Positions 17,643-62,575 of a stretch of DNA of 64,000 nt are shown piece by piece. The number at the start of each line of letters is the position of its first letter. Position 1 is the stretch's first letter. Under the pieces are notes generated by a model, which worked only from the letters and a program-made list of their open reading frames with translations, had not been told where the DNA came from and searched no databases. The DNA comes from an uncultured Alphaproteobacteria bacterium. Lineage in GTDB: Bacteria > Pseudomonadota > Alphaproteobacteria > Rs-D84. The translations under genes and the position numbers were made by a program. The DNA lies in contig CATOOF010000002.1 in assembly GCA_951801825.1 (NCBI GenBank), forward strand, positions 31,058 to 95,057. The letters run 5' to 3'.

Positions 17643-17678
17643 CTAGATTTTAAGGTGTTTTTAGGATATAATACCGAT

Positions 17679-17847
17679 TGTAATAGGGGACCTATTATGC
17701 GAGACTAACAACCTCGCTCAGTAGACGCCTGCAGGCGTAAAATGCCAATCTATATCGGGATTGGATGGTGGTGAATATTCAATAAACCACATGCATTCTA
17801 CTGTGCAGTTGTTAGCTCCAATCCCGTCCATATCACATGACGGTTTT
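17679..17847 (+). ncRNA. Structured X/Y double-pairing ncRNA, unit D1
   Basis: Promoter TAGATT-17-TATAAT (17644-17672); X CTAACAAC 17705-12 pairs X' GTTGTTAG 17808-15; Y CAGTAGA 17719-25 pairs Y' TCTACTG 17797-803; closing stem GGGATTGGA/TCCAATCCC; terminator CCGTC..GACGG-TTTT. Confidence 0.8.
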
Positions 17848-17903
17848 ATATTTGTACGGAAAAATATTGTGGAAATCATGCGTTCCGCACGGTATAATAA
17901 ATG

Positions 17904-18092
17904 CGTAATAGATTTTCTGTTGCAAAAGAAGGGGCGTGAGAAACCCTATCATCAGAACCGCCTGTGCAGGCGCAGGCGTATGCTTCAACCCATTGGTTGG
18001 AGGCCGGTGCTATATATTGAAGGCACCGGGGCAATTTCGTTCTGATGATTGTTTCTCAACCTCCAACCACCCATATTTCTCGGTGGTTTTTT
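17904..18092 (+). ncRNA. Structured X/Y double-pairing ncRNA, unit D2
   Basis: Promoter TGGAAA-17-TATAAT (17870-17898); X TGAGAAAC 17937-44 / X' GTTTCTCA 18051-58; Y ATCATCAGAAC 17948-58 / Y' GTTCTGATGAT 18039-49; stem GGTTGGAGG/CCTCCAACC; terminator ACCACC..GGTGGT + T-run. Confidence 0.8.
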
Positions 18093-27556: not shown

Positions 27557-27641
27557 TGGTGCGGATAGGGGGACTTGAACCCCCAAGGATTGCTCCACAG
27601 CATCCTTAGTGCTGCGCGTCTACCAGTTTCGCCATATCCGC
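27557..27641 (-). tRNA. tRNA-Leu, anticodon AAG, CCA encoded
   Basis: GCGGATA acceptor stem, TGGCGAAACTGGTAGACGC D arm, CAGCA-CTAAGGA-TGCTG anticodon arm, long variable arm, GGGGGTTCAAGTCCCCC T arm, ACCA end. Confidence 0.95.
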
Positions 27642-30751: not shown

Positions 30752-30928
30752 CCCGGCGGCAATGCGGCCCGGTACCAGCACCAGAGCCGGGGATAGCGCC
30801 GCCGGGCCATACAGTGTAAGACATTAAGGGGTCGGGGCCCGATACCGTTTCTGTGATTGGAGATGAGAAGACGGTAAAACAGGCCCCGACATTTATTTTT
30901 TACCCACGGATAAATATTTTATTTCCAC
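30752..30928. repeat. 177-bp two-hairpin element E, copy 1 (identical to 50785-50961)
   Basis: Base-by-base identity; hairpins CCCGGCGGC/GCCGCCGGG (30752-30806) and GTCGGGGCC/GGCCCCGAC (30831-30890). Confidence 0.9.
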
Positions 30929-30949
30929 CATAAAACATTCCCGCCGATA

Positions 30950-31126
30950 AAAAATGAACCGCTGTAAAATTTAAGCGGCTGGAGGTCTAAACTATATCAA
31001 TGAAATAGTGGGTTTATTTATGCATATCACCACCCTCCAACCATATAATATAGTCAGAGATTTTTAACGTGCCCCGGCACGCATTGATAAGAGGTTTAGA
31101 TTCCCCACACTAACATCGTTAGTGCA
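30950..31126 (-). ncRNA. Structured X/Y ncRNA, unit A1
   Basis: Promoter TTGCGC-17-TATTAT (31160-31132); + strand GTTTAGA 31094-100 vs TCTAAAC 30986-92, CATTGAT 31082-88 vs ATCAATG 30996-31002; closing stem 30977-31042; terminator CCGC..GCGG-TTCATTTTTT. Confidence 0.8.
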
Positions 31127-31175
31127 CATGAATAATATCATATATAGAAATGTAGCGCAAGAAAAAAATAAATGC

Positions 31176-31363
31176 AAAAACCACTCACTATGAAATGGGC
31201 GGGATTGGAGTATATAAACTATACCAATGATATAGAGCGGCTTATTTGAATCAAAGATTCTTATTCGCCTGCGCTCCAATCCCATAACATAGAGCTATGT
31301 TCATGCTTTTGCATGCATTGGTAAAGAGGTTTAGATTCCTCATATCTGCAACACGCCGATACA
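31176..31363 (-). ncRNA. Structured X/Y ncRNA, unit A2
   Basis: Promoter TTGAAA-17-TATAAT (31398-31370); CATTGGT 31316-22 vs ACCAATG 31223-29, GTTTAGA 31329-35 vs TATAAAC 31213-19 (1 mismatch); stem GGGATTGGAG/CTCCAATCCC. Confidence 0.8.
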
Positions 31364-31410
31364 TAGGTAATTATACATAAGATTTTATAGGATTTCAATA
31401 TATAAAAAGT

Positions 31411-31622
31411 GGTTGGAGCTACAATCTATCGTAAAGTATAGCGGGCTTATTCATGTATATCACCCACTCCAACCATAAAAAGTGGTTGGACGTTAAGAAC
31501 TACTATCAACGAAATAGAACGACTTATTGGTTATTCGTCGTCATCCAACCATAAAAGGCGCCGGGGGTAAGAAACTATCTCGATGGAATAGCCGATTTAT
31601 TTATATATCATCGGCCCCCGGC
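31411..31622 (-). ncRNA. Tandem array of three orphan 3' modules (A3 31411-31474, A4 31484-31550, A5 31560-31622)
   Basis: Each has the closing stem, the GA(A/T)(T/A)..AATAA hairpin and the CTAT-loop-ATAG hairpin; separated by ATAAAAAGT/ATAAAAGGC. Confidence 0.75.
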
Positions 31623-31627
31623 CATGC

Positions 31628-31656
31628 AAAAAAATCTGCCCCCGCGGGTGGGGCGT
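31628..31656 (-). terminator. carD terminator
   Basis: GCCCC..GGGGC hairpin followed by AGATTTTTTT on the minus strand. Confidence 0.7.
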
Positions 31657-31660
31657 GGAA

Positions 31661-32221
31661 CTACGATTCGTCTTCGATTTCTTCTTCTTCGTCGCCTTCG
31701 ACCGCGTTCAAATCAATTTCCTTTGGTATGCCCAAAATGTCTTCGATTTTATCTGATGCCTCGTCTAAATCTATTTTGTGTAATACCGCAAATTCCTGGG
31801 CCATGCGTTCCAGCGCGCGCAGGTACAGCTGGCGCGCAGAAAATGTCATGGTATCGGCCGCACTGCGCCGCTGCAGGTCGCGCACAACCTCCGCCAGTTT
31901 CATCGGGTCGCCCGAGTTTATGTTTTCTTCGTATTGTGCCGCACGGCGTGCCCATATCATGCGCTTGGCCCCGGCCTTGCCCTTGGCGGCGGCGATTGCC
32001 TCATCCATCTTTTTGGCCGATGTTAACGGACGCAGACCCGATATCTCGGCACGTTCGACCGGAACGCGCAGGGTCATGTGGTTGCGCTCAAAATCAATGA
32101 CCAGCATTTTTACCTTCTGGTCGCCAATTGTTTGCTCTTCGACGCGTAATAGTTTGCCGACGCCCTGGGTCGGATATACGACGTATTGTCCTGTTTTAAA
32201 GTCTAATTTCTTGCTTGCCAT
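31661..32221 (-). CDS. carD: CarD/CdnL transcription factor
   Basis: FKTGQYVVYPTQGVG, GLRPL, WARRAAQYEENINSGD..AEVVRDL. Confidence 0.93.
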   Translation of the reverse strand: MASKKLDFKTGQYVVYPTQGVGKLLRVEEQTIGDQKVKMLVIDFERNHMTLRVPVERAEISGLRPLTSAKKMDEAIAAAKGKAGAKRMIWARRAAQYEENINSGDPMKLAEVVRDLQRRSAADTMTFSARQLYLRALERMAQEFAVLHKIDLDEASDKIEDILGIPKEIDLNAVEGDEEEEIEDES

Positions 32222-50982: not shown

Positions 50983-51157
50983 AAAAATGAACCGCTGTAA
51001 AATTTAAGCGGTTGGAGGTTAACAACTATATTAAGGTATAGCCCAGTTCATTCAAGTATATCACTGGCCTCCAACCAAAGAAGTTAGAGTTTTATCACGC
51101 CCCGGCGTGTTTCCTTAATAAGAGGTTGTTATGCCTCGCACTAACATCGTTAGTGCA
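50983..51157 (-). ncRNA. Structured X/Y ncRNA, unit B1
   Basis: Promoter TTGCGC-17-TATTAT (51191-51163); GTTGTTA 51125-31 vs TAACAAC 51020-26; CCTTAAT 51113-19 vs ATTAAGG 51030-36; stem 51010-51076. Confidence 0.8.
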
Positions 51158-51206
51158 GATGAATAATATCATATATATAAATGCGGCGCAAGAAAAAAAT
51201 AAATGC

Positions 51207-61722: not shown

Positions 61723-62328
61723 TTAACTGCCGCTGTAATAGCAATTATTTGTCCAAGAGAAAGTGCCGCTGTTATCATTGTGTGTTGTTCCGGTCGGCTC
61801 ATAGCATTGTGTTATATATTTTGATGCAGCCGCTGATGTTCCCTGGGATGGGCAGGACGTGCATATGGTGTCTGATATGCCTGTGCCGGTCGGGCTGCCA
61901 TAGTATCCTGGGACGCATCGATATTCATATGTTGCATTGCATGTGTTACAAACACATTTTCTGGTAGCTTTTTGTTGTACGCCGGTATTCAAAATGGGTT
62001 CGGACCAGTCTGTGTCGCTGACACAATTATTGCAGCCAGTGCATGGTTCTTGACATTCATAGTATGTTACCTCGTTTGAGCAGCCAGGGGCTAATACGCT
62101 TTTTTGCACCCGCAGAAATCCTGATGGACATACATCACATGTTATTACTTGATTAGAGCCCCAATAAAAAGAACTCCGCTGTTCGCAATATATTAATGAT
62201 ACATTAATTTGCGGGCATTGATTATAGCCCAACGGACAGCTGATCTGCCTCTGGCATAGTGTATTTGCAATTGTCTGTGTGGTAAAGAGAAAGGCAATTG
62301 CGCTTGTAAGGAAAAAATATTTTTGCAT
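61723..62328 (-). CDS. Secreted Cys-rich hypothetical protein (201 aa)
   Basis: AGGAG RBS, signal peptide, C-terminal CxPGYYG..CTSCP..TS..ITQCY..DNSG..CYY. Confidence 0.85.
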   Translation of the reverse strand: MQKYFFLTSAIAFLFTTQTIANTLCQRQISCPLGYNQCPQINVSLIYCEQRSSFYWGSNQVITCDVCPSGFLRVQKSVLAPGCSNEVTYYECQEPCTGCNNCVSDTDWSEPILNTGVQQKATRKCVCNTCNATYEYRCVPGYYGSPTGTGISDTICTSCPSQGTSAAASKYITQCYEPTGTTHNDNSGTFSWTNNCYYSGS

Positions 62329-62357: not shown

Positions 62358-62575
62358 AAAAACCACCAATCATTGGTGGTCAGGAGGTTAACGACAATTG
62401 TTGGAATTGTGCCGCTTATTCAATATATTCGCGAGCCCTCCTGACCCATAAGTGGGTTTTCAGGAGTTGTTTTTCGTCATCGATAGTAAAAAGGGCGCAA
62501 ATTGCGCGCCACTGGTATCTATTCCCGACGCCAACATAGAGGTCGTTACACCCCATCCACGGAACACCCGTGAAC
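62358..62575 (-). ncRNA. Structured X/Y ncRNA, unit C (long linker)
   Basis: Promoter TTGCAT-17-TATAAT (62610-62582); GTCGTTA 62542-48 vs TAACGAC 62389-95; CCAACA 62531-36 vs TGTTGG 62399-404; stem GGTCAGGAGG/CCTCCTGACC; terminator ACCACCAAT-G-ATTGGTGGT + T-run. Confidence 0.8.

Follow-up and report, generated by a model that had tools for sequence, protein, structure and literature searches.

Stand-alone 3' domains of a C4/a1b1-like RNA family form a tandem array behind carD in Candidatus Enterousia

Directly behind carD in a Candidatus Enterousia genome lie three short tandem modules that resemble the 3' part of a structured RNA, each with two variable segments (guides) and none with the 5' half that such segments pair with elsewhere in the same genome. 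What are these modules, and on what could they act? A sequence-only reading of the window, that is, the whole 64,000-nt stretch of DNA analyzed here, had described them as tandem minus-strand copies of one scaffold placed after the carD terminator, and both the coordinates and the description are correct. The locus comprises the following features:

31661–32221, minus strand: carD, encoding 186 aa and located upstream of the array (ORF; Pfam CarD_C 3.3e-16, CarD_TRCF_RID 4.9e-12)
31628–31654, minus strand: intrinsic terminator of carD, GCCCC-loop-GGGGC plus U7 (hairpin 31654–31638 plus T run; consensus scan)
31559–31623, minus strand: module A5 (covariance model [CM] match, E 2.3e-6; stems 31561–31621)
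31615–31621 with 31561–31567, minus strand: stem P1 of A5, CCGGGGG/CCCCCGG
31610–31614 with 31592–31596, minus strand: P2 of A5, CCGAU/AUCGG
31588–31591 with 31575–31578, minus strand: P3 of A5, CUAU/AUAG
31579–31587, minus strand: guide X' of A5, the P3 loop UCCAUCGAG
31568–31574, minus strand: guide Y' of A5, the single strand UUUCUUA
31484–31550, minus strand: module A4 (CM, E 8.1e-10)
31544–31550 with 31484–31490, minus strand: stem P1 of A4, GGUUGGA/UCCAACC
31537–31541 with 31519–31523, minus strand: P2 of A4, ACGAC/GUCGU
31514–31517 with 31503–31506, minus strand: P3 of A4
31507–31513, minus strand: guide X' of A4, the P3 loop UUCGUUG
Within 31491–31502, minus strand: guide Y' of A4; UAGUUCUUAACG comes after P3
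31411–31474, minus strand: module A3 (CM, E 6.8e-9), with P2 GGGU/GCCC
31467–31474 with 31411–31418, minus strand: stem P1 of A3, GGUUGGAG/CUCCAACC
31438–31441 with 31426–31429, minus strand: P3 of A3
31430–31437, minus strand: guide X' of A3, the P3 loop ACUUUACG
31419–31425, minus strand: guide Y' of A3, the single strand AUUGUAG
31370–31398, minus strand: promoter of complete unit A2, TTGAAA-17-TATAAT (11 of 12 consensus positions)
31203–31369, minus strand: complete unit A2 (5' half 31316–31369, an extra hairpin, module 31203–31282)
30977–31134, minus strand: complete unit A1 (5' half 31081–31134, module 30977–31042)

In the module scaffold, a closing stem P1 of 7–9 bp encloses a P2 hairpin of 4–5 bp with a conserved A-rich loop (GAUAUA..AAUAA), followed in the 3' part by a CUAU/AUAG hairpin with the variable loop X', the variable 7-nt strand Y' and the second strand of P1. 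A5, A4, and A3 stand head to tail with nothing between them except U-rich linkers of 9–10 nt (CGCCUUUUAU and ACUUUUUAU), which leave no 5' half within the array. The sequence ACUUUUUAU also follows A3 directly, and the module-plus-linker units measure 73–75 nt. Five occurrences of the motif AATAA-N4-8-CTAT-N6-12-ATAG were counted in the window (0.04 expected), all of them within 30992–31601. Tandem Repeats Finder returned no row on the array because the module copies are too diverged. The stretch from carD to A5 has the canonical carD terminator ahead of the array and no detected promoter, and no ORF lies between the array and the A2 promoter. When the array is folded as a whole, the P1 strands of A4 and A3, which are identical, become mixed (z −3.13).

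The P1 stems run into U4–U5 within 2 nt, which could make A3–A5 extra transcription stops or insulators that reinforce termination after carD and protect the A2 promoter, their guides being irrelevant. A complete unit at C2:82488 likewise ends in P1 plus ACUUUUUAU, without a separate terminator hairpin. However, carD already has a canonical terminator, the module stems enclose ~50 nt, a span that makes a poor intrinsic terminator, and the consensus scan calls the carD terminator only. Strains without the array have the same neighboring genes, and a function as stops leaves the retention of P2, P3, and the conserved loop unexplained. We consider it very unlikely.

The modules belong to a large family. 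A CM built from five copies other than A3–A5 matched the genome (897 kb, four contigs) at 41 loci (43 CM rows minus two opposite-strand echoes), a density of about one per 22 kb in the reduced genome of a gut symbiont. Within the genus, 23 of the 24 genomes sampled gave a match, as did 5 of 16 genomes from other families of the order and 3 of 60 from other families of the class, the last with one weak match each. Enterousia, a genus of gut Alphaproteobacteria, is placed in the order Rs-D84 and has reduced genomes, and the available part of an account of the genus does not mention RNA (PMC12306168). By title and abstract, none of the Enterousia papers found concerns RNA.

Covariation argues that the scaffold is a genuine RNA fold. 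In a model-fitted alignment of 80 matches from at least three genomes, standard pairs fill 99.2% of 1,296 cells and both sides have changed in 14 of the 18 base pairs. None of 500 shuffles reached the observed covariation values, and slid controls were 29–52% paired. The P2 stems of A5, A4, and A3 differ in sequence and are all paired. These data back the earlier description of a constant scaffold with two short variable guides, as does the pairing of the guides with the 5' half in complete units.

Stem P1 and the P2 loop are conserved in sequence, whereas the other helices covary freely. Such a pattern would suit decoys, A3–A5 titrating a factor that recognizes the scaffold (P1 GGUUGGAG or the A-rich P2 loop) away from ~36 leaders. 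This factor could be a protein or the ribosomal anti-Shine-Dalgarno, and the 5' strand of P1 contains GGAGG, the ribosome-binding site (RBS) of the downstream gene being UGGAGG. However, the idea comes from sequence inspection, has no candidate factor, and sits poorly with the unstable copy number of the array, which makes it highly improbable.

Complete units, in which a 5' half lies upstream of the module, account for 36 of the 41 loci. They are ordered as promoter, two-hairpin 5' half, module, and then usually a terminator and a gene. The 5' half consists of a 7-bp hairpin, a 4-bp hairpin whose 8-nt loop (Y) complements Y', and, immediately following it, a strand (X) complementing X'. A second CM, for the 5' half, was run on this genome and gave 31 good matches, all directly upstream of a module, eight of them in the window; one further row (E 1.08) lies away from any module. 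In-register pairing between cognate 5' halves and modules scored 14.45 on average (n = 31, minimum 13.0), against 7.91 for non-cognate combinations (n = 1,240, SD 1.58, 99th percentile 12.5), and the top-ranked 5' half was the cognate one for 30 of the 31 modules. In A1, both Y (UCUAAAC) and X (UAUCAAUG) are matched between 5' half and module, and in A2 the X/X' pair is intact and Y' is mutated relative to strain L053. The single-stranded guide of A2 (31219–31228) reads UUUAUAUA and its L053 counterpart (2860–2875) reads UUUAGAUA; the latter pairs with the loop AAUCUAAA of the L053 5' half, a pairing partly lost in the window copy.

Against all 31 5' halves of the genome, A3–A5 reached best in-register scores of 10.0, 12.5, and 11.5, below the cognate minimum and within the non-cognate tail. 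Having no matching 5' half, their guides are therefore unoccupied. The partner sequences that the sequence-only reading had predicted for A3–A5 do follow from their guides, and it was right that none of the eight 5' halves in the window fits them.

The downstream genes of complete units fall into a few classes. Most units have a terminator hairpin after the module, and the start codon lies ~50 nt downstream of the module, which leaves no space for a separate promoter; for this reason, we infer that complete units are leaders read through into the downstream gene. Modules of the GGUUGGAGG type precede genes for small XRE-type helix-turn-helix proteins (Pfam HTH_3/19/31). Those of the GUCAGGAGG type precede genes for Cys-rich secreted proteins, with no Pfam family in the one tested. 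Two further downstream families, both small, have no Pfam match, and no gene lies behind two unit clusters, A1–A5 among them.

Several details of these leaders can be added. At 17672–18068 (plus strand) of the window, two tandem complete units lead into a 124-aa helix-turn-helix-like ORF, and paralogous pairs occur in G000 at C2:7141–7533 and C1:418294–418610. The leader subtype with the closing stem GUCAGGAGG/CCUCCUGAC precedes paralogous Cys-rich proteins of 129–242 aa with signal-peptide-like starts, as exemplified in the window by this pair:

62379–62445, window: module of a GUCAGGAGG/CCUCCUGAC leader
61726–62328, minus strand, window: ORF of the same leader

Further leaders of this subtype are found in G000 at C1:3620, C1:455381, C2:11765, C2:128577, C2:140726, and C2:276775. 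The GGAGG in the P1 5' strand of complete units (e.g., 30977–31134) resembles the downstream RBS (UGGAGG or CAGGAG), and a copy of CUCCAAC or CUCCUG is located just upstream of P1. In 19 of 22 parsed hairpins, the terminator 5' arm extends 1–4 nt into the P1 3' strand, a rough count that comes from 33 attempts, the other 11 having been misparsed. The sequences around P1 suggest that strands may pair in alternative ways, which could link folding with termination or translation.

The layout of these units has a close counterpart in phage P1. According to the phage record and the Rfam alignments, a1 lies in the 8-nt loop of a second hairpin and b1 is a single strand just downstream. The 77-nt C4 RNA of the phage forms a three-way junction; b' occupies the loop of the second hairpin in it, and a' a 7-nt strand before the closing stem. 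Y thus takes the place of a1, X of b1, Y' of a', and X' of b', with the same crossing, and the a1b1 element and the Enterousia 5' half share a first hairpin of 7 bp and a second of 4 bp that presents the target in an 8-nt loop. In the immI regions of phages P1 and P7 (RF01695 plus RF03163), as in Enterousia, specificity resides in two short segments that differ between relatives. A1–A5 start with GG after AU, like the RNase P site of phage P1. The fold and guide placement of the module are those of the C4 three-way junction (RF01695); the upstream element of c4-a1b1 is missing from A3–A5, and the corresponding architecture is present in 36 of the 41 family loci.

The two systems also differ in several respects. 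The closing stem has 9 bp in Enterousia versus 17 in the phage, the loop of the first hairpin is a conserved A-rich stretch of 13–15 nt versus a tetraloop, and a terminator and genes for XRE-type or secreted proteins follow the module versus icd/ant. Unlike the phage RNA, the Enterousia family has about 41 chromosomal copies, A3–A5 among them without a1/b1. The Rfam C4 model (RF01695) scores 68.8 bits on the phage c4; it gave no match at gathering score in the window and none at E up to 10 in 30800–31700 or the whole genome. In 30800–31700, c4-a1b1 (RF03163) was not matched at E up to 10, and no Rfam family matched the array region at gathering score or at E up to 10. Reciprocally, our module and 5'-half models find neither c4 nor a1b1 in phage P1. 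A site like a2/b2 of the phage after each module was ruled out: complementarity to the 110-nt downstream flank shows no excess (10.77 for own flanks, 10.66 for those of other units), and the upstream control gave 13.93 own and 10.89 other. By likeness of layout, not of Rfam score, the Enterousia family is predicted to work like C4 with a1b1, and A3, A4, and A5 can be securely identified as stand-alone 3' domains of a C4/a1b1-like family.

Multiple chromosomal C4-like RNAs have a precedent. The available part of a study of Acinetobacter baumannii describes the Group 1 small RNAs as many C4-type folds per genome with variability in the guide region, as in Enterousia, and suggests that they are processed out of longer transcripts at a GGW site and are directed at phage or host targets (PMC5320573). 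These RNAs are recognized by Rfam C4, unlike the Enterousia modules, and in that part of the study a cis partner of the a1b1 type, a leader function, or module-only tandem arrays are not reported (PMC5320573). None of the C4 papers found concerns the present lineage.

Other tandem systems were compared with the array. In type III toxin-antitoxin loci, ToxI-like arrays consist of near-identical repeats of ~36 nt before a toxin gene, made as one precursor. They resemble A3–A5 in being tandem structured RNA repeats. However, the A3–A5 units of 73–75 nt are diverged and no ORF lies behind them, and this identification was rejected: Tandem Repeats Finder gave no row and the position of the toxin ORF is not filled. 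CRISPR arrays alternate a constant part with variable "address" segments; in Enterousia, by contrast, the variable parts of 7–9 nt lie inside a folded scaffold and there are no phage-derived spacers. A mobile element of the MITE type was dropped in view of the promoters and terminators, the specific gene classes downstream, and the RNA-type covariation. The earlier term "guide array" holds as an analogy only, the variable parts being 7–9 nt long and the array size unstable between strains.

Stand-alone modules are not restricted to carD. This genome contains two further module-only copies, C1:472236 and C2:16880, both with a −10 box immediately upstream and both at the head of a tandem cluster; the promoter of C2:16880 is conserved in the related genome G041. 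In another species (G013:C4), a two-module array is driven by a promoter. Because of these three cases, we regard module-only RNAs as a recurring form. None of the five module-only copies of this genome has a cognate 5' half, and for this reason an action of modules on resident 5' halves is not supported.

The reading that we tentatively prefer, a possible one somewhat short of probable, takes A3–A5 as free modules that arose by tandem duplication and act in trans in the manner of C4. It is favored because the fold is intact in all seven array modules of two strains, because promoter-bearing module-only genes exist, and because the closest known system acts in trans through exactly these two segments. 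The array would have arisen by tandem duplication of a module with its 9-nt U-rich linker before the A2 promoter. It may be transcribed by read-through from carD, each P1 stem with its U tract serving as a leaky terminator or 3' end, and the released modules would serve as trans-acting antisense RNAs of the C4 kind against transcripts with a matching pair of the a/b type. Such targets are expected outside the resident 5' halves, for example in leaders of other strains or of mobile elements, by analogy with the heteroimmunity of phages P1 and P7; this expectation follows from the lack of a resident partner together with fast, guide-focused turnover between strains. The sequence-only reading had also proposed action in trans. 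The match in layout with the phage C4 and a1/b1 makes it a reasonable idea, but no target was recovered in the scans described below and no cognate 5' half is among the 31 detected in the genome. The precedent in A. baumannii and the presence of RNase P RNA also speak for the trans-acting reading. Against it stand the carD terminator before an array with no detected promoter, the unstable copy number, guides of A5 and A4 that differ in L048, the lack of Rfam C4 scores, and the lack of an a2/b2-like site.

Six runs recorded as RNA contain the stretch as Logan contigs, which neither show nor exclude transcription. The contigs over the locus in runs X2 and X4 measure 3.5–38 kb and may be DNA carry-over. 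In X11, the Logan contig with carD ends at 31623, and in X12 it extends to 31543; neither run covers ~31340–31540. The genome encodes RNase P RNA (184.5 bits) and the modules begin with GG, and runs available as contigs only cannot show 5' ends.

Partners of the guides were sought widely. Within the genome, the search for Y..X partners is without power, as shuffled guides score 13–19, equal to true cis partners; the best candidate for A5 (C1:444646) lies inside a coding frame. The A5 pattern has no exact match in 256 other Enterousia genomes. An exact-match scan of IMG/VR gave 55 stretches with the partner pattern for A5, at least 118 for A4, and 70 for A3. A loose hairpin filter retained 31 of the 243 matches listed, and by eye none of these shows a promoter, a P0 hairpin, or the GAGG..CCUC stem. 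In metagenome contigs, the A3 pattern with a CCUC stem occurs in at least 117 stretches, none of the 117 listed being in the context of a 5' half or a module. Among the matches listed, both the viral and the metagenome exact-match scans are at chance level. The partners that the sequence-only reading had anticipated elsewhere in the genome or beyond it were thus not recovered.

The recent history of the array can be followed in other assemblies. Among 80 carD loci, 13 have a module match in the flank, and a module-only array behind carD is present in L048 only, whose CarD is 99% identical. This array comprises four modules, B1–B4. B1 has the scaffold of A5 and the guides of unit A1; B2 has the scaffold of A4 and guides one base off those of A5 in each segment; B3 equals A3 apart from two differences; and B4 has guides equal to those of complete unit 51010–51076. 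The guides of A5 and A4 are not conserved in L048, module A3 is, and all three helices are kept in the seven array modules of the two strains. In the ~800-kb L048 assembly, the partner search for the array modules matched only their own antisense strands, and the contig ends within the 5' half of the next unit. The idea of a reservoir of specificities gains indirect support here: the same scaffolds in a near-identical strain carry other guides, some of them equal to those of complete units in the present genome.

In strains L053 and L049 (CarD 97% and 96% identical), the array is absent and the same neighbors are kept; carD is followed by an inserted small ORF and other repeats, and then by A2-like and A1-like units. 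By eye, this ORF has a GIY-YIG-type look. Behind it, within the inserted stretch (L053 2100–2680, L049 2100–2573), come copies of another element with inverted repeats (…GTCATTGCGAGG…CAATCCAG…), which also adjoins the G013 module array (L412, G013:C4, 20–260). In contigs of a related strain from two runs of one study, 31401 is joined to 31475, skipping exactly the 73 nt of A3 plus linker, and the remaining differences from the window are mostly in the X' loop of A5. Array size across close strains is thus 0, 2, 3, or 4 modules.

This turnover raises a second reading of the array, in which A3–A5 are by-products of recombination: unequal crossing-over and gene conversion among ~40 similar units would have left partial copies of module plus linker. 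These would be silent or almost silent, and would at best form a passive reserve of cassettes from which conversion could transfer guides into active units. The variable copy number would be expected of such by-products, as would the identical junctions (ACUUUUUAU/GG), the lack of a detected promoter behind a strong terminator, and the lack of a partner in the genome, the genus (for A5), and the viral and metagenome scans. Positional orthologues share their scaffold but differ in their guides, some of which match complete units, a pattern as expected of conversion tracts that end in conserved scaffold. However, every helix is kept in all seven array modules of the two strains, A3 is conserved between strains, and module-only genes elsewhere have promoters. 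A switch of specificity in a complete unit involves the 5' half as well as the module, and an orphan module cannot supply the two together. On balance, we judge this reading, the main rival, somewhat unlikely.

Complete units show the same contrast in tempo. Sixteen G000 units, exemplified in the window by the one at 51010–51165, were compared with those of G041 (CarD 99% identical), and fifteen have a positional orthologue. Four units underwent a coordinated replacement of Y/Y' and X/X' with essentially identical flanks (360559/L133, 100740/L142, 405338/L140, and 191743/L135), and two carry single compensatory doubles (394360/L137 and 17292/L156). Three units are identical, and the others either differ little or lack orthology; in the sixteenth comparison, 195683/L134 (83%), a paralogue was set against the orthologue of 264654. 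Because Y/Y' and X/X' switch together or by compensatory doubles between strains, the pairing is under selection in complete units, and guide cassettes move or change much faster than scaffolds.

C4 has so far been described as a phage immunity RNA and as a multi-copy small RNA in Acinetobacter. Here, its fold and pairing logic occur in another setting, beyond the reach of the Rfam models, expanded in number, and as the leader of genes for regulators and secreted proteins, with specificity pairs that switch in coordination between near-identical strains. The array behind carD, which has no partner, is a natural place to test the action of modules in trans. If they do act in trans, they would represent a simple programmable RNA–RNA recognition system in an uncultured lineage and suggest how these bacteria vary the expression of surface or regulatory genes; if not, the array records the speed at which the repeat family recombines. 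In a wider and doubtful proposal, Enterousia would possess an RNA "address code": ~40 leaders would close on themselves through private kissing pairs, free modules would be trans-acting keys or blockers for the addresses of leaders in other strains, in mobile elements, or not yet resident, and gene conversion would shuffle guide cassettes between arrays and leaders. Were this joint claim true, an RNA-only system of compatibility or immunity built on the C4 fold would govern XRE regulators and secreted Cys-rich proteins.

Modules also occur on contigs filed as viral, four of which (L408, L409, L410, and L411) each carry one. On the IMG/VR contig L408 (11990–13164), the gene behind a complete unit encodes 316 aa of secreted type, and nearby ORFs resemble, by eye only, a phospholipase-D-type nuclease and a DNA methyltransferase. 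At gathering score, the window as a whole has a single Rfam match, a tRNA gene:

27560–27641, minus strand: tRNA gene
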